Shown here piece by piece: positions 1,319 through 59,172 of a stretch of DNA of 59,172 nucleotides. Source of the DNA: an uncultured archaeon (GTDB lineage: Archaea > Nanobdellota > Nanobdellia > Woesearchaeales > UBA583). Under the pieces are notes generated by a model, which searched no databases, was not told the DNA's origin, and saw only the letters and a list, made by a program, of their open reading frames with translations. Position 1 is the first letter of the stretch. Each line of letters starts with the position of its first letter. A program made the position numbers and the translations under genes. Location: the NCBI GenBank assembly GCA_937138345.1, contig CAKZOW010000029.1, positions 1 to 59,172 of the forward strand, read 5' to 3'.

Positions 1319-1386
1319 AATAACAATCTTTTTAAAGAGAATTTAATATAGTATTTTATACCTCAAATTATATTAATTTACGCCTT

Positions 1387-1471
1387 GTGGGGGTCGCCCA
1401 GTCCGGTCAAAGGCGCAGCCTTGAGGGGGCTGTCTCGTTAGAGTTCGCGGGTTCAAATCCCGTCCCTCACA
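1387..1471 (+). tRNA. tRNA-Leu (anticodon GAG), long variable arm, no encoded CCA
   Basis: Hand-folded cloverleaf. Acceptor GTGGGGG/CCCTCAC, anticodon stem CAGCC/GGCTG with loop TTGAGGG, 14-nt variable arm, T arm GCGGG-TTCAAAT-CCCGT, discriminator A. A T5 run follows. Confidence 0.9.
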
Positions 1472-1488
1472 TTTTTGCGGAGCAAAAA
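1472..1488 (+). terminator. oligo-T plus 7-bp hairpin TTTTTGC-GGA-GCAAAAA immediately after tRNA-Leu
   Basis: Perfect inverted repeat. Nearly the same motif (TTTTTGCAGAGCAAAAAT) follows tRNA-iMet at 28137-28154. Confidence 0.45.
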
Positions 1489-1573
1489 TGTTTGTTCCTT
1501 TCTTTAAACCCGCTTCGCGGTGTTCAAAAATATACTATTTTTGACAAAATCATTTTCTTTGAAAATGATGTTC

Positions 1574-1593
1574 TTCAAATCCCGTCCCTCACA
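1574..1593 (+). repeat. direct repeat of the last 20 nt of tRNA-Leu (T-loop to discriminator)
   Basis: TTCAAATCCCGTCCCTCACA is identical to 1452-1471. Confidence 0.9.
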
Positions 1594-1673
1594 TAAAAAA
1601 TTTTTGAATATTTCTAATTTGGATTTGAACGAAGTTCCTTCGGTACCAAGAATCACAACGTGATTGTTGAGAA

Positions 1674-1691
1674 CAAATCCCGTCCCTCACA
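1674..1691 (+). repeat. second direct repeat of the tRNA-Leu 3' end (18 nt)
   Basis: CAAATCCCGTCCCTCACA is identical to 1454-1471. Confidence 0.9.
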
Positions 1692-1746
1692 TTATTTTTT
1701 TAAAATACAAGATAATGTTTTTAAACTAAGAACTACAGGTATTGTT

Positions 1747-2379: not shown

Positions 2380-2838
2380 ATGTCACTAAAAAAAGTAGAA
2401 ATTATTTCTTCAGAATTCAAAAACACCTCTGAACTCTCGGAGTTAACATCATATGTTGGAAAAGAGGTTTTTTCAAAATCAGGAGAACCAATTGGATCAG
2501 TTAAAGAAATAGTTGTTCATAAAGATAAAATTAAAGGAGCAGTTATTTCATCAAAAAAAGATTTTTATATTGATAAGGAACAATTTGCTTTAAATGAACA
2601 TGAAGTAATTATCTTAAAAATAGATCCAATTTTTGCTTTAATTGGAAAAAAAGTATATGATTCCCAAGGAAAAGAAATTGGTACTGTTCAAGATTTAAAG
2701 AGAAAAAATTCTCTAAATGATTTCAGTGAGTTAATCGTCTCTAAAAGTTTACTCTACAAAAATCTCAAAATACCTAAAAAAGAAATAGAAACAACAGGTG
2801 AGAGTATAGTATTGAATAAAAAATATAAAAATGAGTGA
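2380..2838 (+). CDS. PRC-barrel domain protein (two barrels)
   Basis: Contains VGKEVFSKSGEPIGSVKEIVV and IGKKVYDSQGKEIGTVQDL, matching the PRC-barrel signature. Overlaps the next gene (ATGAGTGA). Confidence 0.6.
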   Translation: MSLKKVEIISSEFKNTSELSELTSYVGKEVFSKSGEPIGSVKEIVVHKDKIKGAVISSKKDFYIDKEQFALNEHEVIILKIDPIFALIGKKVYDSQGKEIGTVQDLKRKNSLNDFSELIVSKSLLYKNLKIPKKEIETTGESIVLNKKYKNE

Positions 2839-3265
2839 TATAATAACAGGAGATGATATTTTAGGAAAAGAAGTATTAGATAACTTTGGAAGGAAAATTG
2901 GAGTAGTTATGAAACTCCACATTGATAGAGAAAAAAGGACACTAACAGGAATCTCAATTGATAGAGGATTTGTGAGTTCTGATATTTTTATAGGATCAGA
3001 TTTTATTAAAACCTTTGGAGTTGATGTAATTATATTATCAAAGTCTCCAGCATTTACTTATGAGGGTTCTAAAGTTTATCGAGAAGATGGAAAATATATT
3101 GGAAAAATTGAAGAAGTTACTTTAAATAGATTAAAACAAATTGATACATTACTTGTAAATACTGATAATAGTATATTAAAAAATAAGACGATTACTATAT
3201 CAAGAAAAGATATTAAAATAATTGGTTTGAGTATTATCTTAAAAAAAAGTTTTGAAATAAATTAA
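2831..3265 (+). CDS. PRC-barrel domain protein (paralogue of the preceding gene)
   Basis: Contains ILGKEVLDNFGRKIGVVMKLHID and GSKVYREDGKYIGKIEEV. Translationally coupled to 2380-2838. Confidence 0.6.
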   Translation: MSDIITGDDILGKEVLDNFGRKIGVVMKLHIDREKRTLTGISIDRGFVSSDIFIGSDFIKTFGVDVIILSKSPAFTYEGSKVYREDGKYIGKIEEVTLNRLKQIDTLLVNTDNSILKNKTITISRKDIKIIGLSIILKKSFEIN

Positions 3266-3305
3266 AATTCTTTAAGTACACAAATTAAAATTTGTTCTCT
3301 TAAAT

Positions 3306-3365
3306 TTAAATTTCACGTTTTACTACTTTATTCATAATTTGGTTAACTACTTGTGGTTTTGCAGG
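3306..3365 (-). pseudogene. displaced second copy of the gatB C-terminal tail (PAKPQVVNQIMNKVVKREI*)
   Basis: Shares a 19-nt identical block plus codon-level similarity with 3420-3476. It is in frame with gatB and ends in TAA. Confidence 0.75.
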
Positions 3366-3419
3366 TGCTTCTGCTGAAGAGCACCCACAGCTGATGTTTC
3401 GCAACTTGTTACTCAAGCA
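3366..3419 (-). other. 54-nt conserved spacer element with a bulged hairpin (AGCA loop) between the two gatB tails
   Basis: The core AGCTGTGGGTGCTCTTCAGCAGAAGCAC (gene strand, 3392-3365) recurs behind mgtE at 54489-54515. GCTTGAGT and GAAAC blocks are also shared. Confidence 0.7.
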
Positions 3420-4811
3420 TCAAAATTCCTTTACTACTTCAAACATGATTTTATTTACTACTTGTGGTTTTGCAGTTCCTTTAGTCTCACGCATTACTAC
3501 TCCTACGATGAAGTTTAATGATTTTGTGTTTCCCCCTTTGTAATCTTCTACTGCTTTTGGATTATCTTGGAGTGCTTTTCTTACTAACTCTTCAATTAGG
3601 GAGTCATCTTGCACTTGAATTAAATTATTTTCTTCAATGTATTGTTTCACATCAAATTTATTTTCATATAATTTCTCAAGTGTTTTTTGAGCTGTTGTGT
3701 ATGAGATTTTATCTTCTCCTAAAAGAGTAATTAATACTGTTACTTCGTCTTTGATATCTTTTGATTCAAGCGTTTCAAATGATTCATTGTGATAGTTTAA
3801 AACTCTTGGTATTTCTCTTCTCAGAAATAGACCAACTTCTCTTGGATTTAATTTTTTCTCAATTGCATATTCAAATACTTCTGAGAGGTACAAGTTTGAT
3901 ACAAGAACTTCAATATCTTCTTTTGATAGATTGTAGTTTGAATATTTTTTTCTCTTCTCTTCAGGTAACTCAGGTAGTGAGTCCTTTAGAGCTTTAATTT
4001 CTTCATCACTAATAATTAAATTAGGTAAATCCGGCTCTGGTGTGAACATGTAATCTTGAGCATTTTCTTTTGATCTCATGAATTGAGTCTCATCTAGCTC
4101 TTCATTATATCTTCGAGTTTGTTGTTCAACTTGCTCCCCATTTGCAATAAGTTCTCTTTGTCTTTTAATTTCAGCCTCAGCTGCTGCAACAATATTTGAA
4201 ATAGAATTCACATTTTTAATTTCAACTCTTGTAAATCCTGATTCTTCAACAGATACATTAACATCAGATTTAATTCCAAAATCTTCATCTAGAGCTCCTA
4301 AGTATTTACCTAAAAGAATTAATTCTTCAAGCCAATCCCTTAGTTGTTCAGTACTCTCAAAATAAGGACCAGTTACAATTTCAGCTAGAGGAAATCCTGC
4401 TCTGTTATAATTTAGCTCACCAGTTTTAGGATCCCAAGCAGCTGGGTTTTCTTCAAGGTGAATCTCTTCCATTTTAATTCCTTTAAATTCTCCACCAATT
4501 GCATTACATTTAACATTACCACCTGATACTGTTCTTTGGTATCCAGTTGGCATATCTGGCCATGTGTAGTGTTTTCTTTGAAAATAGGTTTGGTTTGTAA
4601 TTTTAGCACCCATTGCAAGTCCTAATTTAATTACATGATCAAATGCTCTTTTATTTGGTAGCATTGGTTTTGAACCAGGTTGTCCAGTACACCTAGGACA
4701 AATTGTAGAATTAACTTCACTATCTTGACGAGGTGTTTTACAAGTACAAAATAGTTTTTCTTTAGTTTTTAGATGCATATGGACTTCAAGTCCTATTTTT
4801 ATCTTACCCAT
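3420..4811 (-). CDS. gatB: Asp-tRNA(Asn)/Glu-tRNA(Gln) amidotransferase subunit B
   Basis: N-terminal GLEVHMHL..KLFCTC...CPRC..QPGS and the full-length pattern are typical of GatB. The length (463 aa) fits GatB rather than GatE. Confidence 0.9.
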   Translation of the reverse strand: MGKIKIGLEVHMHLKTKEKLFCTCKTPRQDSEVNSTICPRCTGQPGSKPMLPNKRAFDHVIKLGLAMGAKITNQTYFQRKHYTWPDMPTGYQRTVSGGNVKCNAIGGEFKGIKMEEIHLEENPAAWDPKTGELNYNRAGFPLAEIVTGPYFESTEQLRDWLEELILLGKYLGALDEDFGIKSDVNVSVEESGFTRVEIKNVNSISNIVAAAEAEIKRQRELIANGEQVEQQTRRYNEELDETQFMRSKENAQDYMFTPEPDLPNLIISDEEIKALKDSLPELPEEKRKKYSNYNLSKEDIEVLVSNLYLSEVFEYAIEKKLNPREVGLFLRREIPRVLNYHNESFETLESKDIKDEVTVLITLLGEDKISYTTAQKTLEKLYENKFDVKQYIEENNLIQVQDDSLIEELVRKALQDNPKAVEDYKGGNTKSLNFIVGVVMRETKGTAKPQVVNKIMFEVVKEF

Positions 4812-10356: not shown

Positions 10357-10833
10357 ATGTCAAATTTTTATTCATTTAAGGCAAAAACTCTCCAAGGAAA
10401 AGAAGTTTCTATGGAAGAATATAAAGATAAAGTAGTTCTGGTTGTAAATACTGCATCTAAATGTGGTTTAACTCCACAATATGAAGGATTGGAAAAATTA
10501 CATAAGGAATATAAAGATAAAGGATTAGTTATTTTGGGATTCCCTTGTAATCAATTTGGAAACCAAGAACCAGGTTCTGAAAAAGATATTAAAGAAGGTT
10601 GTCTTCTAAATTATGGAGTAACATTTCAGATGTTTTCAAAAATTGATGTTAATGGTGAAGACGAACATCCTTTGTATACTTATTTAAAATCTCAAAAGAA
10701 AGGAATGTTTGGTTCTAAGATTAAGTGGAATTTTACTAAGTTTTTAGTTGATAAAAATGGAGATGTTGTAAAAAGATTTTCTCCAACAACAACCCCTGAT
10801 AAGCTAGAAAAAGATATTCAAAAACTTCTTTGA
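10357..10833 (+). CDS. gpx: glutathione peroxidase (Cys-type)
   Basis: Has the canonical Gpx motifs [26 protein letters not shown] and [12 protein letters not shown]. Confidence 0.9.
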
Positions 10834-10882
10834 AGTTTTTGGGACCTTCTTCCAAAGGTATTCAAAAACTTATTTCAAGTTT

Positions 10883-11419
10883 TTATTTAGTGATTAAATA
10901 CACGCTATCATTTACAAGTACATGAAGTTTTCCTTTTTTCTTATCAATAAAATTTGAGGGAGTATAAATCATAAGAGAATTAGATTTTTTATGAAACATT
11001 TGAAGAGCTTCTATAATAAATGGAGTAATCTTTTGAACTTCGTCTTGTTTATTATTTAAGTTTTCTTTTTCAGGATTACTATAGTTTAAATGAAATATGA
11101 TTTTTGAATCACATAGACCTTTAAGGTAATTCATTGTTTCTTCTTCCATTTTTTCTTCTTGTTGTTCATTACAAAAATGTATTAGAGAATCATATGTACT
11201 TGGTTTTGATACTAAAGAGAGAATGATATATTCATCTCTTCTAAATATATGAGTATATGATCCATTTGAATTTTTTTTAGTTTCTAATATAGTATTACCA
11301 ATTTTAACTTTTAATGGATTTGAATTATCAATTTTTATCTCATTATCATCTTTTGTATTGTTTTCTTTCTTATTATTTTTCTTAAATAATGAAAAAAATC
11401 CGTTCTTATTTAATTTCAT
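10883..11419 (-). CDS. hypothetical protein
   Basis: 178-aa ORF in an AT-rich background. No recognisable motif. Confidence 0.45.
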   Translation of the reverse strand: MKLNKNGFFSLFKKNNKKENNTKDDNEIKIDNSNPLKVKIGNTILETKKNSNGSYTHIFRRDEYIILSLVSKPSTYDSLIHFCNEQQEEKMEEETMNYLKGLCDSKIIFHLNYSNPEKENLNNKQDEVQKITPFIIEALQMFHKKSNSLMIYTPSNFIDKKKGKLHVLVNDSVYLITK

Positions 11420-11848: not shown

Positions 11849-11950
11849 TTTTTTTACTTAATTCCATCTTGTTCCGCTTTTTTCCGCTTTCTTTTGGCCA
11901 GTTTTGGATTATTTTTATATATTGTTCCAATCATAATTACATACTGAAAA

Positions 11951-24274: not shown

Positions 24275-27200
24275 ATGTATTCAAAAAAAGCAATAATACC
24301 TATTATTTCTTTATCACTCCTATTGGTGTTATTAGTTTTGAGTTTTTTTAGTGTTCAGCAATGGTACCTCTCAACACAGAGTTCTTATTTTTCAGATACC
24401 AAAAATGAAATTTCTACAATTTCAGGGAATTTAGAAATTGAAGCTGTTGTTGAAGATGATGTTTATTTTAAATTTGATTCTAATGTAACAATTAATAGAA
24501 TTACTCTAGATTCTGTTGAATGTATTAGTTCTCCAATTAGTGTTGTAGGAATTGAGTCAATAAATATTTCTGATTGTAAATCTCAAATTTCAAAAAGCTC
24601 TGCTCTACTAAGAGTATTTACCGATAATGAAGTACTTGTGAGGACAATTTTTATTGAGCAAGAAATAGATAATACTATTGAAGAAATAATAGTTAGTTCA
24701 GGAAATATCACAGAAATTTTAAATTTAACTGGAGATATTTTATCCTTTTATAATAATTTTAGTTCTTTAAAAATTAAAGATATCTTAATTAACGGGACCT
24801 CAGTTTTAACATATCCTAGAGAGTATACATATTCTTTAGATATTATTTCTAATTCTGGCAATTATAATAGATATTCATGTAACACACAAGTAATTCCAGA
24901 TGATGATGATGATGGAATTTATACTATTTCAGATTTAGGTTTTGATTTTCCTTTTTTTGATTCTATTTTATCTTCGGGAACTCCCTTTTATGTAGATACT
25001 AATGGAAGAATTTCTACAACTGATTCTAGTTCAATTTTTTCACCATCTAATTCAGATTTTTTAAATGATATGAATATAGCTCACTTTTGGAATGATTTAA
25101 CTTTAGATAGTGGGATGTTTGTTTGCAATAATCAAGGCATTTCTCCAAATAAATATACTGTAGTAAAATTTGATTCTTATTGGTATGGAGGATATGGAGA
25201 TACAGATAATGAAGTTATCTTGTACGAGAATGGAACTATTGAGATGAATTATGGTGGATTAGTAACAGATGAATATACTGGAACTTATGTAGGTTTAAGT
25301 GCAGGTGATAGCTCACAATTTACAAATGAAGTTATAGCTGATGCATCAACTCTTGCTAATACTTCTAGGATCTATACTCTTGAAGAACCTACTTTAATTT
25401 ATAATAACGGTACTTATGAAATTAATCTATCTACTTTAGGGATTTTAGATTTAGAGAATGTTATTCAAAATATTACTTTAGTAACTAATCAATCTAATTA
25501 TAGTAAGCTCCTAGATGTTTCAACTCTTTTTGACTCTTGTAGTTTAGACTCAGTTGAAGTTACTCATTTATCTTCATATAATTTTTTTAATTCTGATAAT
25601 GAAGTGTATCCTTCAGTATGTGAGTCTTTACCGAGAACTTGTTATAATGGATTTTTAGGAGGAGATACTTCATATAATTATTCTAGTTGTACCTTGGATA
25701 TATCATCTACTCCTGCAGCTTCTGAGTTTAGGTCAGTTTGGAATACAAATAATACTGGAATTTCTAACTTATCTCAGATTAAGTTGCCTCTAAGAGAATC
25801 AGGTTCATATAATTTTTTAGTTGATTGGGGAGATGGGACTAATGATACTATTACATCTTGGAATCAAAGTGAAATTTTACATACTTATTTGAGTCCAGGT
25901 ATTTATAATGTTACATTAAAAGGATTAGTAAATGGCTTTGGTTTTGAAATTAATAAAAATTTTTTTGATGATATAAAAGATGATGGAGATAAATTACTTG
26001 ATATTACGCAATGGGGGGACCTTAAATTAGGAAATCAGGGTTGGTATTTTTATGGTGCAGAAAATCTTCAGATTAGTGCTCTAGATATACCTGACTTAAC
26101 TACTACAACTAACTTAAGTGGAATGTTTTTTGGAGCTACTTCTTTTAATTCAAATATTAGTCATTGGAATGTTAGTTCAGTTACAGATACGAATAGAATG
26201 TTTATACGAGCTACTTCATTTAATCAATCTTTAGAAAATTGGGATGTGAGTTCTGTTACAGATATGGAGGGCATGTTTGCATTAGCTAGTTCCTTTAACC
26301 AATCACTTAACAATTGGGATGTTAGTTCAGTTACTGATATGGGAGGGATGTTTTCAGAAGCTACTTCATTTAATCAGCCTTTAAATAACTGGGATGTTAG
26401 TTCAGTTACTAATATGTGGAGTATGTTTTTAAGTGCTAATTCTTTTAACCAGCCTTTAAATAGCTGGGACGTTAGTTCAGTTACTGATATGAGTTATATG
26501 TTTTCTACTTCACTCATTATAGATGGATATCAATTTAACCAGCCATTAAATAATTGGAATGTTAGTAGTGTTGAAAATATGAGAGGTATGTTTCAAGGTG
26601 CTGGTTATTTTAATTCAAATATTAGTATCTGGGATGTGGGTAATGTTGAAAATATGGGGGATATGTTTTCTCGTGCTAGTTCCTTTAATCAACCTATTAA
26701 TAGTTGGAATGTTAGTTCAGTTACTAATATGGAGAGTATGTTTTCACAAGCTAGTTCTTTCAATCAACCAATTAATAGTTGGAATGTTAGTTCAGTTACT
26801 GATATGAAGAGTATGTTTTCTCGTGCTAGTTCCTTTAATCAACCTATTAATAGTTGGGATGTAAGTTCAGTTACTAATATGGGGAGTATGTTTAATGGTG
26901 CAACCTCTTTTAATCAACCTTTAAATAGTTGGAATGTTAGTTCAGTAAGGTCTTTTACATATATGTTTTCAGGAGCTACATCTTTTAATCAACCTTTAGA
27001 TAGTTGGGATGTGAGTAATGTTGAAAATATGTTAAGTATGTTTAGGAGTGCTTCATCATTTAATGGAAATATTTCTTCATGGAATACTTCTTCTGTGACT
27101 AGCATGCAGAATATGTTTTGGGACGCAACTTCATTTAATGGGGATATTTCGGAGTGGGATGTTAGTTCAGTTAGAAGTTTTAAAGAAATGTTTAGAAATG

Positions 27201-27625
27201 CTGATTTTTTTAATCAAAACATTAGTGGATGGAATACATCTTCTGCTACAGATATGAATTCAATGTTTGAAAATACAGCAATATTTGATCAAGATTTGAA
27301 CAATTGGGATGTTAGTTCAGTAACTGATATGGGAGGGATGTTTTATGCAACACCAAATTTCAATGGAAATATTTCATCGTGGGATGTTAGTTCTGTTGTT
27401 TTAATGCATGATATGCTCTCGTCTACAGGTTCTTTTAATCAAGATATTAGCGGATGGAATACATCTTCAGCTATAAATATGAACTTTATGTTTTGGAGTG
27501 CAGATGTTTTTAATCAAAATTTATCTTCTTGGGATGTTGATCAAGTAACTGGATGTGGTAACTTTAATACTGATGGAGTTATGAATACATCTTTTATTCC
27601 AAACTTCACTTCATGTACTCAATAA
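24275..27625 (+). CDS. type-IV-pilin-like (class III signal peptide) giant adhesin with 19 DUF285/BspA-like repeats
   Basis: The N-terminus is MYSKKA|[16 protein letters not shown]. It carries 19 copies of a ~25-aa unit FNQ(P/S)(L/I)N.W(D/N)VSSVT.M..MF..A.S. Confidence 0.75.
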
Positions 27626-28039: not shown

Positions 28040-28061
28040 ACATCTTTTATACATATATATT

Positions 28062-28136
28062 AGCGAAGTGGAGCAGCTAGGAGTGCTCGCGGGGCTCATA
28101 ACCCCGAGGTCGTTGGTTCAAATCCAACCTTCGCTA
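28062..28136 (+). tRNA. initiator-type tRNA-Met (CAT)
   Basis: Hand-folded cloverleaf. Acceptor AGCGAAG/CTTCGCT (A1:U72), anticodon stem CGGGG/CCCCG with loop CTCATAA, T arm GTTGG-TTCAAAT-CCAAC, discriminator A. Confidence 0.9.
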
Positions 28137-28164
28137 TTTTTGCAGAGCAAAAATTGCTCTTTTT
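28137..28164 (+). terminator. T-run plus hairpins (TTTTTGC-AGA-GCAAAAA and AGAGCAA-AAA-TTGCTCT followed by TTTT) after tRNA-iMet
   Basis: Inverted repeats read directly from the sequence. The first motif is shared with the tRNA-Leu trailer. Confidence 0.5.
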
Positions 28165-28236
28165 GATTCTCACCAACTTCGTTGTGAATAAAAATCTTTG
28201 ATTTTTATCAGAGCGGATCAGTGATCAGGGTCTTTA

Positions 28237-28249
28237 CAAATCCAACCTT
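28237..28249 (+). repeat. 13-nt direct repeat of the tRNA-iMet T-loop/acceptor 3' region
   Basis: CAAATCCAACCTT is identical to part of the tRNA 3' end (TTCAAATCCAACCTTCGCT). It lies ~100 nt downstream, the same spacing as at tRNA-Leu. Confidence 0.6.
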
Positions 28250-28340
28250 TAATATTATCTAATCAAATTTATTTTTCCTATAAATACTCCAAACTAAAGT
28301 AAATACATTAATTTATATACTCATTTTTTCTTTTTTTTTT

Positions 28341-52448: not shown

Positions 52449-52538
52449 TTTTTATTCATACTTTGTACTCATCAAAAATGCGAGCAAAATACTATGCATT
52501 TTTGAGCTCTATTTTTTAAACAAAATAGAGTTTCATTT

Positions 52539-53176: not shown

Positions 53177-54439
53177 ATGGAAAAACCTCAAAGCAATAAT
53201 CCAATTTCACATTATGTTGATATGGTTCTTAATAGCGATGAGGCTTACAAAGAATTCTTACGAGTGCCGCTTGAGAGACAAGCAATGGTTTTTTTAGATT
53301 TGCCAGGTGATTTTCAAAAAAAATTTGGTGATGATTTATCAGTTAATTATATTTTATCATTATTTAAATTTTTAGACCCCGATGAAATTACTGATTTCCT
53401 ACAGCATTTACCTGAAGAAAAACATAATCAGGTTGCTAAAAAATTAGATGAGAATTTAAAAGAAAAAGTAGATTATCTACTTAAATTCGATCCTAATTCT
53501 GCAGCGGGTCTTATGAATTTAGATTACGTTATTGTTTTCAAGCACTCAAAAGTTGAGACTCTCTATAATAAATTGAAAAAGACTTATGCTAGAAAAAAAA
53601 CAACACCTATTGTTTTAGTTAGAGATAAGGAAAATCACTTAATTGGCCATATTCCTTTTGAGCATTTCATTTTACATAGACCTCATTCTTTAGAACATGT
53701 AATTGAAGATATTCCATTTGTATATTATGATGAACACTATGATGATGTTATTAAAAAATTTAATTCAACAGATCATAAAAATTTAGTTGTAGTTGATTAT
53801 GAGAATCATATTTTAGGTGTTATTGAAACAAATGACTTGTTAAAAAGAATTGAAGAGAGTACAACAGAAGATGTATATGGTCTTGCAGGAGTAAATAAGG
53901 AAGAGGATATTTTAGATAGTGGTTGGTCTAAATTTAAATCTCGGTATTTGTGGTTAATTTTAAATTTATTTACAGCATTTTTAGCAGCAGGAATTGTTTC
54001 ACTTTTTGAAGATACTTTAACTAAATTAGTTTTGCTTGCAGTTTATATGCCAATTATTGCTGGAATGGGAGGTAATGCTGCAACTCAGACATTGGCAGTT
54101 GTTGTTAGGGGAATATCAACTCACGAAATTGATGCTAAAACTAAATTAAGAGTATTAGGTAATGAGCTTTTTGCCGGAACGCTCAATGGTTTTGTTAACG
54201 GAATAATAGTTGCAATTATCGCGTACTTTTGGAACGATATGCCAATGCTTGGAGTAGTTGTTGGATTATCTATGGTAATTAATTTATTCATTGCCGGTTT
54301 TTTTGGAACAATTCTACCTTTTATCTTAGATAGATTCAAAATAGATCCAGCAGTTGCAGCAACTGTATTTGTAACAACAGCCACAGATGTGGTTGGTTTC
54401 TTTGTTTTCCTAGGTCTAGCAGAGATATTGTTGTTATAA
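53177..54439 (+). CDS. mgtE: magnesium transporter MgtE
   Basis: Has an N-domain, a CBS pair and a TM domain with AGMGGNAATQTLAVVVRGI and ATDVVGFFVFLGLA. Confidence 0.9.
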   Translation: MEKPQSNNPISHYVDMVLNSDEAYKEFLRVPLERQAMVFLDLPGDFQKKFGDDLSVNYILSLFKFLDPDEITDFLQHLPEEKHNQVAKKLDENLKEKVDYLLKFDPNSAAGLMNLDYVIVFKHSKVETLYNKLKKTYARKKTTPIVLVRDKENHLIGHIPFEHFILHRPHSLEHVIEDIPFVYYDEHYDDVIKKFNSTDHKNLVVVDYENHILGVIETNDLLKRIEESTTEDVYGLAGVNKEEDILDSGWSKFKSRYLWLILNLFTAFLAAGIVSLFEDTLTKLVLLAVYMPIIAGMGGNAATQTLAVVVRGISTHEIDAKTKLRVLGNELFAGTLNGFVNGIIVAIIAYFWNDMPMLGVVVGLSMVINLFIAGFFGTILPFILDRFKIDPAVAATVFVTTATDVVGFFVFLGLAEILLL

Positions 54440-54440
54440 T

Positions 54441-54460
54441 AGAGATATTGTTGTTATAAT
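54441..54460 (+). repeat. exact 20-bp tandem duplicate of the mgtE end (AGAGATATTGTTGTTATAAT)
   Basis: 54421-54440 and 54441-54460 are identical. Confidence 0.95.
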
Positions 54461-54465
54461 TATTA

Positions 54466-54515
54466 GAGCTTGAGTGAAACGAAACTCTAGCTGTGGGTGG
54501 CTTCAGCAGAAGCAC
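54466..54515 (+). other. conserved spacer element with a bulged hairpin (AGCA loop), second copy
   Basis: GCTTGAGT..GAAAC..AGCTGTGGGTGGCTTCAGCAGAAGCAC. The same blocks occur in the same order and orientation relative to the host gene as at 3366-3419. Confidence 0.7.
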
Positions 54516-54522
54516 GTTGCGG

Positions 54523-54564
54523 TTCTTTGTATTCTTAGGTCTAGCAGAGATATTGTTGTTGTAA
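54523..54564 (+). pseudogene. displaced copy of the mgtE C-terminal tail (FFVFLGLAEILLL*)
   Basis: 42 nt aligned to 54398-54439 with 3 differences, all synonymous (GTT/GTA, CTA/TTA, TTA/TTG). Confidence 0.8.
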
Positions 54565-54677
54565 AATCCATTCGACCAAAAATCTATGATTTTTGAGTTA
54601 TTAGAATTAGTAGAACTAGTTGTTTTATTGTTTTATCTAGTAGTAATATTTTTAAATGCGTTTTGACATTATTTCTT

Positions 54678-54974
54678 ATGTCATCAATGAGTTCATTATT
54701 TTTAGAAGAACAAATTCTTATTTTAGCACAAAAATATAAAGATAATAATTACAATCATTTTCTACTACAATATATTGATCCTTCTAAAAATACTATTGAT
54801 TTATTTTCTTTAAGAAAAGAAGTACCAATTAATCTACGATCATCATTTAAAAATACTTTACTACACACTTACGATGTTTTATCTATCCACTATAGTAGAA
54901 CTGAGGGTAAAAGAAAACTATCACATTTAACAGAGGGAAGTCCAGAATCATTTGGCTTCCCATCTAAATTTTAA
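54678..54974 (+). CDS. hypothetical protein
   Basis: ORF of ~98 aa with no motif. Weak call. Confidence 0.25.
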   Translation: MSSMSSLFLEEQILILAQKYKDNNYNHFLLQYIDPSKNTIDLFSLRKEVPINLRSSFKNTLLHTYDVLSIHYSRTEGKRKLSHLTEGSPESFGFPSKF

Positions 54975-58169: not shown

Positions 58170-58346
58170 AGTAATGTAGAGTTAATTATGTTTATAAGTT
58201 TGAGTATTAACAGTTCAGATATAAACAATAAGTTTTTATAATATTGAAGTTTAAGTTTTTTAATTTTGAGACTTAGAATATTTTTGTTTGATTTTAAGTT
58301 TACTTCCCTTAAAAGTTCTTGGTCTTTCGGTTTTACTTTAATATGA

Positions 58347-58577
58347 ATTTCTTTAAAAGGAAATGGACATGATGGTTATAATATGTACAGAAGAACTGGA
58401 TATCCAACGAACATTGAGCCAAACTTGGAACTTAACCCAGGTGCGTTTATAAGATCGTTCTTTTATCCAGCTAACGCTGCTAACACAAACTCAGCTTTAT
58501 CACAAAAACAGAATGTTACTGGTCAAGTTTTTTGGGATACTAACCCAGCTTCACCTGGATTTCCTGTTGGAAACTAA
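58347..58577 (+). pseudogene. C-terminal fragment of a SusD/RagB-family (Bacteroidota outer-membrane nutrient-binding) protein
   Basis: MYRRTGYP...R.FFYP......N... resembles SusD-family C-termini. The frame is closed by TGA at 58344-58346, so more than 400 aa of N-terminus are missing. Confidence 0.55.
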
Positions 58578-58593
58578 TTAAAAAAAAGAAAAA

Positions 58594-59172
58594 ATGAAAA
58601 AAATAAGTTTATATTTTTTAATTGCTGCAACTGTATTTTTTACTAGTTGTGAAAGTGATGACAAAGTTGTTTTAGATATAATAGATGGTGTTACAAGTAG
58701 TGCCATTCTTAGAACTAGAAGTATCGAGAATGGAACCTACAATAGGTTTGACACAACATCAATATTTTCTGTAACTGTTGAAGAACAAGATGTTGAAAAT
58801 GGTGCTTTGTTATCTTCAGTAGATGTTTTAGTATCTTTCAAAGACAACAAGGACGATGGTGTTGATAACACTAAAGCAGAAACTGCATATTCAACTATTG
58901 CTGGCAGTGATTTCACTGTTGGATCTAGAGGTCTTCCAGAAGTAAATTTTACAGCTACATTAGCAGAGGCATTAGCAGCAGTTGGTTTAGTTGATGGACA
59001 ATATGATGGTGGCGACACTTTCAACTTTAGATTTGTTCTAAATTTAACAGATGGCACTTCTTGGTCAGCAGCGAACGGTAATGGTAACATTACTGGCGGA
59101 TCCTATTTTAGTTCTCCATACCAATATACTGTTGGTGTAGCCTGTATTCCTGTAACGCCAGTAACTGGCACT
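58594..59172 (+). CDS. Bacteroidota-type surface lipoprotein, 3'-truncated by the window end (not in the supplied ORF track)
   Basis: I translated 193 codons without a stop. The N-terminus is MKKISLYFLIAATVFFTSCESDD (lipobox Cys followed by acidic residues). The upstream region is A-rich. Codon usage is richer in G/C than the rest of the window. Confidence 0.7.
   Translation, partial: MKKISLYFLIAATVFFTSCESDDKVVLDIIDGVTSSAILRTRSIENGTYNRFDTTSIFSVTVEEQDVENGALLSSVDVLVSFKDNKDDGVDNTKAETAYSTIAGSDFTVGSRGLPEVNFTATLAEALAAVGLVDGQYDGGDTFNFRFVLNLTDGTSWSAANGNGNITGGSYFSSPYQYTVGVACIPVTPVTGT

Follow-up and report, generated by a model that had tools for sequence, protein, structure and literature searches.

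The analyzed window is the whole 59,172-nucleotide stretch of contig CAKZOW010000029.1, which derives from a Woesearchaeota-like DPANN archaeon; the host is an archaeon, not a bacterium. Two genes in this window, gatB and mgtE, are each followed by a short structured element, designated as E1, and by a second copy of the end of the same gene. The features of the two loci are as follows.

3420 to 4811, minus strand: the gatB coding sequence (463 aa). Its last 19 codons (3420-3476) are the tail T1, the tail in use.
3365 to 3419, minus strand: E1 copy 1.
3306 to 3364, minus strand: the displaced tail T2 (ending in AKPQVVNQIMNKVVKREI and a stop), which starts immediately after E1.
3262 to 3305, minus strand: about 29 nt of AT-rich spacer plus T3, the last 15 nt of the native gatB end (TTAAAGAATTTTAAT, 3262-3276), overlapping the stop of the convergent PRC-barrel gene (2831-3265).
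53177 to 54439, plus strand: the mgtE coding sequence, whose tail T1a is at about 54391-54439.
54440 to 54459, plus strand: an extra 20-nt partial tail copy T1b (TAGAGATATTGTTGTTATAA) with no element before it, probably the remnant of a lost unit.
54460 to 54515, plus strand: E1 copy 2.
54516 to 54564, plus strand: the displaced mgtE tail T2 (ending in FFVFLGLAEILLL and a stop), with 3 synonymous differences from T1a.

The initial annotation described gatB as followed by a 54-nt hairpin element and a second, in-frame copy of its C-terminal tail, and this observation was confirmed. The first tail reads ...ACT GCA AAA CCA CAA GTA GTA AAT AAA ATC ATG TTT GAA GTA GTA AAG GAA TTT TGA, with the stop at 3422-3420, a 54-nt spacer without an in-frame stop follows, and the second tail ends in TAA at 3308-3306. 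Both tails begin with a 19-nt identical block. The core AGCTGTGGGTG..CTTCAGCAGAAGCAC occurs at 3365-3392 (minus) and at 54489-54515 (plus). In shuffled sequences, the 15-nt 3' half of the core never gave as many as these two matches, and the 28-nt core was never matched. Four points were corrected or added. The stop-free frame of the 54 nt is a coincidence of the gatB copy, because the mgtE copy and the copy at another locus (L003, below) have in-frame stops. The 3' hairpin is not thermodynamically unusual (z about 0), and the support for structure comes from covariation of a 5' helix that had not been described. The third tail remnant T3 and the second mgtE tail had not been noted.

The GatB identification is supported by Pfam GatB_N and GatB_Yqey on the identical protein, and orthologues end in GTAKPQVVNEIMLKVVKEF before the stop. 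The mgtE assignment is supported by Pfam MgtE_N, CBS, and MgtE on homologues. T2 of gatB differs from T1 by 4 synonymous and 5 nonsynonymous changes plus one codon indel. T3 is identical to the gatB end of a relative, L006 (p=0.0004), and it lies at the same position relative to the PRC-barrel gene as the gatB end in the relatives L007 and L008, which have empty sites. T1b was recognized as a member of a repeat family and through comparison with a tandem array in the strain L023.

E1 is composed of two hairpin domains. In the 5' domain, helix P1 encloses CTTGAG, a small hairpin, and CGAAAC. The linker AGCTGTGGGTG follows, and then the 3' hairpin GTG-CT-CTTC-AGCA-GAAG-CAC. P1 is GATG/CATC in the gatB copy, where it starts inside the TGA stop codon, and AGAG/CTCT in the mgtE copy. 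All 5 pairs of P1 change on both sides, 96% of cells in the alignment are paired, and 0 of 500 shuffles reach this. A covariance model detected the gatB copy with 82.5 bits (E=6e-21) and the mgtE copy with 72.6 bits (E=3e-18). E1 scores 61-83 bits at every copy, and nothing else in about 218 kb of related contigs scores above noise. The 3' end of E1 is sharp while its 5' junction is fuzzy, and the tail copy usually starts right after ...GAAGCAC; 0-7 nt of G/T-rich filler follows CAC in two loci. E1 lies in the 3' UTR position in every case, and all copies are co-oriented with the upstream gene, although the co-orientation rests on only three informative loci.

The same tail-E1-tail layout was found behind three unrelated genes (RNase HII, a histone gene, and a gene upstream of htpX) on other metagenome contigs, at the loci labeled L003, L004, and L005. 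In total, five unrelated genes on contigs from several samples show the layout, and only about 7 independent copies were available. The flanking repeats are 17, about 49, 58-64, about 57-77, and about 61-70 nt at different loci. L003 and L019 have 58-64-nt repeats at 97-100% identity around an intact E1, and the L003 repeats are identical. In L004, units are in a tandem array, and the 17-nt tails differ more (2 of 17) than the 72-nt elements (2 of 72). In L005, the duplicated stretch includes the first 10 nt of the 5' domain of E1 itself (p=0.003); repetition of the 5' part of E1 after the second tail was significant only in this locus. Beyond these contigs, no E1 was found in 185,579 species genomes (GTDB) with an exact and a relaxed pattern. 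Viral contigs gave one chance match only for E1, and none for the family E2 described below. Among the metagenome contigs, E1 was absent from all but three.

Empty sites were found in relatives at three loci: gatB in L006, L007, and L008, where L007 keeps the same gene order; rnhB-scpA in L020; and mgtE in L024 and L026. Near-identical strains differ in the number of tail+element units. The strain L010 has an extra tail (T0) plus an unrelated 92-nt element (E3) in front of T1 of gatB. At mgtE, L023 has a tandem T-E1-T-E1 array, while L021 and L022 have only the 5' part of E1 and no second tail, although all three encode the same MgtE protein. The 3' domain of the first E1 copy of L023 is of the gatB type next to a 5' domain of the mgtE type, which suggests ectopic conversion.

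Paired tails differ almost only synonymously, by 13 synonymous changes and 1 nonsynonymous change (P=1.6e-7). Recombination between lineages therefore brought them together, and the duplicate did not simply decay in place. The tail itself is too short to tell whether the tail in use is phylogenetically foreign. Between L010 and the window, the 290 nt upstream of the insert diverge by 3.8%, against about 0.5% in the rest of gatB. A decay gradient is observed at gatB: T1 is intact, T2 carries nonsynonymous changes and an indel, and T3 is a 15-nt remnant.

Related phenomena were recognized at three other places in the window.

1386 to 1692, plus strand: tRNA-Leu, a 99-nt structured insert (E2 family), an 18-nt copy of the tRNA 3' end, an 80-nt insert, and another 18-nt copy.
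28061 to 28254, plus strand: tRNA-Met, a 99-nt E2-family insert, and an 18-nt copy of the tRNA 3' end.
10810 to 10884, plus strand: the duplicated tail (31 nt) of the glutathione-peroxidase (GSHPx) gene, with the 13-nt GC-rich filler GGGACCTTCTTCC, which pairs with the next copy, between the copies.

Sister strains carry integrase-encoding elements (PF16795) at the tRNA-Met. The tRNA repeats start at position 56, which is typical of integrase crossover in the T-loop, and there is no CCA between the tRNA end and its insert.

The reading that we prefer, tentatively and with less than even confidence, is that E1 is a non-autonomous miniature mobile element of this DPANN lineage, whose insertion duplicates the stop-codon-spanning gene end. 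In this view, when E1 enters a new place, a stretch of target of variable length (17-65 nt) ends up on both sides of it. In these very compact genomes (92% coding), only insertions whose duplication spans a stop codon would leave the gene whole, and surviving copies would sit just behind stop codons with a complete tail in front and a redundant tail behind. This first step is inferred. The subsequent evolution of the locus through homologous recombination and gene conversion within the population is shown in outline: the tail in use is overwritten by alleles from diverged lineages, whole tail+element units are added in tandem, swapped, or deleted, and displaced tails drift away from the gene and decay. 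This gives stacks such as T0-E3-T1-E1-T2-T3 at gatB. The dispersal over five genes, the empty sites, the strain differences, the near-identical repeats of L003 and L019, the covariation, the synonymous differences, and the decay gradient support this reading, and there is a precedent in IS1549 and IS1634, which make long direct repeats of variable length, 8-514 bp (PMC2266710). The sharp 3' end and the absence of terminal inverted repeats suggest an end-specific process, not a classical DDE transposase reaction.

Several findings stand against it. No autonomous partner, transposase, integrase, or reverse transcriptase was found in the window or in the neighboring contigs L004 and L005, and E1 has no convincing terminal inverted repeats. 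At gatB, the junctions E3|T1 and E1|T2 fall within about 2 nt of each other, and both elements begin inside the stop codon. Two independent random-length duplications should rarely coincide like that, and exchange of defined cassettes fits better. The repetition of the E1 5' domain in L005 is not predicted by a simple insertion. Tail copies also occur with the unrelated E3, with a 13-nt filler, or with nothing between them, and the duplication process may therefore not depend on E1.

A surrogate-tail cassette is a possible but less likely alternative. Here, the mobile unit would be the gene tail, its stop, and the element together, integrating just upstream of the resident tail by a recombination that uses the tail as its homology or attachment sequence, either Campbell-type from a small circle or through a recombinase acting at the 3' hairpin boundary of E1. 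Each incoming cassette would displace the previous tail, resembling accretion of integrative elements at tRNA genes or cassettes in an integron. Consistent with this, paired tails look like alleles from different lineages, the newest unit is nearest the gene, the two gatB junctions nearly coincide, unrelated elements (E1, E3) occupy the same slot, and tandem arrays occur in L004 and L023. The larger difference between the tails than between the elements in L004, the classical accretion at tRNA-Leu and tRNA-Met, and the clustering of unit lengths at 89-125 nt for both E1 and the tRNA-linked E2 family also point in this direction. However, one element family sits behind five unrelated tails, so each cassette would need to have captured its tail first, which again requires a duplication-type primary event. 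The repeats of L003 are identical, no recombinase was found, E1 carries no shared core sequence with its targets, and a double-stranded circle of 90-150 bp is physically unfavorable. The import tract of L010 extends about 350 nt upstream, which fits ordinary recombination of a long linear fragment, not a mini-circle.

In a more far-reaching form of this idea, which is doubtful but not excluded, DPANN archaea may carry a previously undescribed kind of mobile gene-tail cassette of about 90-150 nt, made of the last codons of a gene, its stop, and a short structured element. It would use the resident tail as a one-sided homology or guide and the terminal hairpin as the defined end. Housekeeping genes and tRNAs would then accumulate integron-like stacks of alternative 3' ends, with the newest nearest the gene, and no classical transposase, integrase attachment site, or reverse transcriptase would be needed.

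An RNA-mediated origin is unlikely. E1, or tail+E1 as the 3' end of a transcript, would be copied by a reverse transcriptase and integrated by target-primed synthesis or template switching; a mechanism of the type of diversity-generating retroelements (DGR) is a special case. The sharp 3' end and the fuzzy 5' junction, the variable repeat length, the co-orientation, the involvement of both mRNA and tRNA 3' ends, and the filler after CAC would fit. Against it, no reverse transcriptase was found in the window, L004, or L005, there is no adenine-specific mismatch pattern, and the absence of CCA and the start of the tRNA repeats do not fit.

It is very unlikely that E1 is not mobile, being instead a functional 3'-UTR or terminator RNA motif recruited or converted between loci, with tandem duplications across stop codons arising by replication slippage or template switching and simply tolerated. 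Tail duplications without E1 (the GSHPx tail, mgtE T1b, and the E3 unit), the 3'-UTR position, and the hybrid E1 of L023 are compatible with it, but a 26-nt core near-identical at five unrelated loci cannot arise independently, the junction lies at the 3' end of E1, and E1 is absent from orthologous sites in relatives. Least likely is an RNA-level switch through splicing, processing, bypassing, or stop-codon read-through: the open frame at gatB and the open, synonymous-only displaced tails in three loci are outweighed by the in-frame stops of the mgtE and L003 copies, where a programmed read-through or bypass element would need an open frame or matched take-off and landing sites in all copies, by both tails encoding the same peptide in three loci so that nothing would be gained, by the lack of a bulge-helix-bulge motif and of Rfam ribozyme or intron matches, by the decay of T2 and T3, and by the first tail being already a complete, orthologue-like gene end.

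The interpretation in the initial annotation, which offered three hypotheses, is thus supported only in part. A miniature integrative element that brings a surrogate tail and displaces the original is the closest to the evidence, but site-specific integration with a carried tail is not shown, and it cannot explain how one element reached five unrelated genes, one of them with perfect 58-64-nt repeats. The DGR-like 3'-end replacement and the RNA-level switch are not supported.

E1 was compared with described systems one by one, and how it would move fits no described element class. IS1634 and IS1549, DDE-transposase insertion sequences of a family reported as preferentially found in Euryarchaeota, produce long direct repeats of variable length with no mechanistic model (PMC2266710), and the repeats of 17-65+ nt around E1 share this property. 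They are 1.5-2 kb elements with a transposase gene and terminal inverted repeats, while E1 is 55 nt with no ORF and no clear inverted ends. The ends of E1 do not fit the published terminal consensus (C-----YT), and no partner was found in the 218 kb of related sequence. Integrative elements with integrases at tRNA or gene 3' ends, such as those with SSV-type archaeal integrases, and CIME-like accretion in bacteria form direct repeats of the 3' end of the target gene, keep the gene intact, and form tandem arrays with several 3'-end fragments. The same genome and its sister strains show this at tRNA-Leu and tRNA-Met, with PF16795 archaeal integrases. E1 also has direct repeats made of the gene 3' end, but it carries no integrase, its cargo is only about 55 nt, and the five gene tails are unrelated, so no single attachment site exists.

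Like MITEs, E1 is small, non-coding (the reading frame is not conserved between copies), multi-copy, and structured, with flanking direct repeats and empty sites in relatives. MITEs have terminal inverted repeats and short target duplications of fixed length, and E1 has neither; by eye, the best candidate, 5' GNGCTTGAG against the reverse complement of the 3' end, GTGCTTCTG, has 6-8 matches of 9-10 positions and is not significant. Double-hairpin elements in fungal mitochondria (Allomyces, Glomus) are short mobile repeats in an AT-rich compact genome, where mobile-element-mediated transfer creates gene hybrids (PMC3787672). The foreign C-terminal part reportedly displaces the native one downstream (Paquin et al.). 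That system is organellar and its tail replacement is driven by a homing-endonuclease ORF of about 1 kb, while no endonuclease gene is present here. In DGRs, as here, a GC-rich block plus a hairpin with a 4-nt loop follows the 3' end of a gene with a second near-copy nearby. However, the T1/T2 differences at gatB involve all bases, those between the other paired tails are mostly at third positions, no reverse transcriptase or Avd is nearby, and the targets are housekeeping genes.

Palindrome-associated elements of the IS200/IS605 type (PATE) have subterminal hairpins, insert 3' of a fixed tetra- or pentanucleotide, and make no target duplication; E1 has hairpins at both ends, but long duplications flank the copies and there is no common target motif at the junctions. 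Integron cassettes have R''/R' core sites (RYYYAAC / GTTRRRY) and an IntI integrase; no GTTRRRY was seen at the E1 junctions by reading the sequences, and no integrase was found. In the Rfam search, only two tRNAs pass the gathering threshold in the window, and only chance-level hits (E>1) fall on the locus. The 3' hairpin has a 1-2-nt bulge, a 4-bp helix, and a 4-nt loop without a second bulge, while the archaeal bulge-helix-bulge intron requires two 3-nt bulges separated by a 4-bp helix. CTTGAG...CGAAAC is not the hammerhead core. A C/D-box or k-turn sRNA was considered by eye because the tandem G·A motif is present, but two extra bases on the non-bulged strand and the absence of C/D boxes argue against it. 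With the element as scaffold and the tail as guide of an RNA-guided nuclease, the guide would match the element's own upstream tail and would target itself. Recoding of TGA (genetic code 4 or 25) was rejected, since ORFs of at least 100 aa under the standard code already add up to about the length of the window, with 92% coding by non-overlapping genes, and the host is a Woesearchaeota-like archaeon. The literature search revealed no described equivalent in DPANN or other archaea.

Long target duplications of variable length are already described for the insertion sequences above, and even on the conservative reading, E1 adds an archaeal case of this phenomenon, for which no mechanism is known. 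If the insertion step turns out to be a homology-guided or hairpin-end-specific reaction, it would be a new transposition or integration mechanism and a possible tool for scarless 3'-end tagging. The process leaves fossil tails and spurious small ORFs that annotators will misread, and it marks hotspots where near-identical strains differ, which is useful for typing strains in metagenomes. It also shows that the 3' ends of essential genes are exchanged between lineages. DPANN archaea have tiny, tightly packed genomes and are thought to carry few mobile elements; here, on the tentative reading above, a 55-nt element persists by a route that leaves genes intact, as the duplicated or replaced piece spans the stop codon.

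On the minus strand, the gatB coding sequence ends with ...GGA ACT GCA AAA CCA CAA GTA GTA AAT AAA ATC ATG TTT GAA GTA GTA AAG GAA TTT TGA. It is followed by 54 nt, TGCTTGAGTAACAAGTTGCGAAACATCAGCTGTGGGTGCTCTTCAGCAGAAGCA(C), and then by a second tail, CTGCAAAACCACAAGTAGTTAACCAAATTATGAATAAAGTAGTAAAACGTGAAATTTAA. The 28-nt core of this spacer is unique in the window at up to 3 mismatches, while its 15-nt 3' half occurs exactly twice, against 0.04 expected. The features concerned are as follows.

3420-4811, minus strand: gatB, ending with the first tail (T1)
3365-3379, minus strand: 15-nt 3' half of the core, behind gatB
3262-3276: remnant of a third gatB tail (T3)
53177-54439: mgtE
54501-54515, plus strand: 15-nt 3' half of the core, behind mgtE

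The copy behind mgtE is also followed by a copy of the tail of that gene: FFVFLGLAEILLL with its stop codon appears twice, and an extra 20-nt partial copy lies between the first tail and the element. The initial annotation described a gene tail, a hairpin element and a second tail at gatB, with recurrence of the core behind mgtE; this observation is correct, and it is stronger than was stated.

The window is 28% GC and 92% coding under the standard code. The best named homologues of GatB, ScpA and MgtE are from Candidatus Woesearchaeota and Nanoarchaeota. In a comparison with 120 GatB orthologues, these end like GTAKPQVVNEIMLKVVKEF followed by the stop. T1 is therefore an ordinary complete gene end, and the stop is real.

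A metagenome scan with the 3' half of the core found three more contigs. The element, designated E1, lies behind RNase HII and upstream of scpA in contig L003, as two tandem copies between two archaeal histone genes in contig L004, and behind a gene upstream of htpX in contig L005. Every copy at these loci has the layout of a gene tail with stop, E1, and a copy of that tail, in the same orientation as the gene. E1 copies generate spurious small ORFs (L004 4666-5090; window 54336-54596), for example MLLLKPPTA..., which starts at the GTG of the hairpin on the opposite strand, and ...LAVGGFSRST..., and gene callers are likely to annotate these as hypothetical proteins.

Alignment of the copies revealed a 4-5-bp helix P1 of variable sequence (GATG/CATC, AGAG/CTCT, GAG/CTC, AAGTT/AACTT, and AAGC/GCTT). 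Inside P1 are CTTGAG, a small variable hairpin, and CGAAA(C). A constant linker, (R)GCTGTGGGTG, and a hairpin, GTG-N1-2-CTTC-AGCA-GAAG-CAC, complete the element. All five P1 pairs change on both sides, 96% of cells are paired, and 0 of 500 shuffles and none of the slid registers come close, although only about seven independent copies contributed and the structure was derived from the same sequences on which it was counted. Folding energy alone is unremarkable. The 3' hairpin never varies because the search pattern fixed it.

E1 has no match in Rfam. A covariance model built on the seven copies scores 61-83 bits on true copies and no more than about 10 bits elsewhere in about 218 kb of the window and related contigs. 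The exact or relaxed core is absent from 185,579 species-representative genomes and from the viral contig collection (IMG/VR). E1 is therefore a narrow, lineage-specific family.

In four of five loci the tail copy begins at the base after ...GAAGCAC. In L003, 6 nt (TGTGTG) intervene, and in mgtE the first 7 nt (GTTGCGG) are a poor match to the tail. The 5' junction is less regular, and E1 begins 0-30 nt after the stop. In gatB, P1 (GATG) overlaps the stop codon, which is TGA here but TAA in every other copy and relative. The repeats measure 17 nt in L004, about 49 nt in mgtE, 58-64 nt in L003, about 61-70 nt in L005, and about 57-77 nt in gatB.

E1 is an insertion, and it varies between strains, although all of the evidence comes from short metagenome contigs. 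At gatB, the relatives L006 (90% GatB identity), L007 (88%), and L008 (86%) have no element. In L007 the gene order gatB / PRC / PRC / VTT is the same as in the window, and the gatB stop lies 1 nt from the convergent PRC stop. In the window, the sequence abutting the PRC stop is TTAAAGAATTTTAAT, which is identical to the gatB end of the relatives (p=0.0004). It is a third, oldest tail remnant, T3. Strain L010, which is 99.5% identical over most of gatB, carries a fourth unit in front: T0 (PQIVNKIMFEVVKEF, stop TAA), then an unrelated 92-nt element designated E3, and then T1-E1-T2-T3, where T2 is the second tail. E3 (L010 1513-1606) begins with a terminator-like hairpin, CAAAAATACATAGTATTTTG, which recurs with 19 of 20 bases downstream of msrA in the window (52485-52504).

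At rnhB-scpA, contig L019 repeats L003 exactly, while L020 (81% ScpA identity) is empty. At mgtE, three contigs encode the same MgtE protein, 97% identical to that of the window, but differ at this site. L021 and L022 have only the 5' domain of E1 and no second tail, whereas L023 has a T-E1-T-E1... array (T, mgtE tail), and the first of its E1 copies carries a gatB-type 3' domain. The 87% relatives L024 and L026 have no E1. About 410 nt downstream of the second mgtE tail (window 54565-54974), including a 103-aa ORF with no Pfam match, are absent from L021 and L022, and in those strains mgtE and the FtsX-type permease gene are 75 nt apart.

The paired tails were compared for synonymous and nonsynonymous differences.

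Differences between paired gene tails.
mgtE T1/T2: 3 synonymous, 0 nonsynonymous
L005 T1/T2: 4 synonymous, 0 nonsynonymous
L010 T0/T1: 6 synonymous, 1 nonsynonymous
Pooled: 13 synonymous, 1 nonsynonymous

About 25% synonymous is expected by chance, and the pooled result therefore has P=1.6e-7. The L003 repeats are identical. The older gatB pair T1/T2, which is not included in the pooled count, has 4 synonymous and 5 nonsynonymous changes plus a codon indel. A duplicate decaying in place would collect mostly nonsynonymous-type changes. Instead, the two members of a pair diverged while both were coding, and they are alleles from different lineages that were brought together. Either the tail in use has been overwritten by recombination, or the tail arrived together with the element. 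L010 supports recombination: its divergence from the window is 3.8% in the 290 nt upstream of the new unit and 12% in T0, against about 0.5% in the remaining 1 kb of gatB. Displaced tails decay with distance from the gene; T1 is intact, T2 is altered, and T3 is a 15-nt remnant.

The phenomenon is broader than E1. Both tRNA genes in the window are followed by inserts of 80-99 nt and by 18-nt copies of the tRNA 3' end, starting at position 56. The tRNA-Leu(gag) (window 1386-1692) is followed by two inserts of 99 and 80 nt, each of which is followed by a copy of the last 18 nt of the tRNA, and this looks like tandem accretion of mini-elements at a tRNA 3' end. The tRNA-Met (window 28061-28254) is followed by a 99-nt insert and an 18-nt copy of the tRNA 3' end. 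The first tRNA-Leu insert and the tRNA-Met insert are homologous, show compensatory changes in a hairpin, and are strongly structured, with z of -5.0 and -3.5. In sister strains (L011, L012, L014, L015, and L018) the same tRNA-Met carries different integrated elements that encode an archaeal integrase (PF16795) whose ORF overlaps the tRNA end.

The last 31 nt of the glutathione-peroxidase gene (window 10810-10884) are duplicated around the 13-nt GC-rich filler GGGACCTTCTTCC. The filler forms a hairpin with the start of the second copy, which has TCA where the first has the TGA stop. A systematic scan found tail duplications at 3 of 52 protein genes and no convincing duplications of gene starts. 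Repeats with a 75-nt period were found inside the gene for a 1116-aa DUF285 protein (window 26069-27551), with GLUG-motif and M26-like surface proteins nearby.

Some contig ends may be chimeric, namely L001 beyond position 11934 and the window at 58.2-59.2 kb. The end of the window (58170-59172) is richer in GC and encodes a Bacteroidetes-style lipoprotein signal peptide (MKKISLYFLIAATVFFTSCESDD), while the 99.7%-identical contig L001 (11934-15551) switches at window position 2878 to a TonB-dependent receptor gene. These may be chimeric assemblies of archaeal and Bacteroidota DNA.

A target duplication on insertion is tentatively favored as the origin of the first copy at a new gene. One family reached five unrelated genes, and one locus has perfect repeats. 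IS1549 and IS1634 show that long duplications of variable length exist (PMC2266710). The main rival, that tail and element together are the mobile cassette, is less likely but possible, and it is favored by the near-coincident junctions of E1 and E3 at gatB, the allelic nature of the tails, and the accretion pattern that the tRNA loci share. No enzyme was found in the window or in contigs L004 and L005. The readings as a DGR, intron, ribozyme, or read-through element fail specific tests and are not supported. The interpretation in the initial annotation, which had proposed a miniature integrative element, a retroelement, or an RNA-level switch, is supported only in part.

The analysis establishes that E1 is a dispersed, structured element that varies between strains, that at the five loci it always sits between two copies of a gene end, that units are gained and lost, and, in outline, that tails are exchanged by recombination. 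The way in which the first copy at a new gene arises is an inference from these patterns. In the favored view, selection in a 92%-coding genome would explain why only events spanning a stop codon survive.
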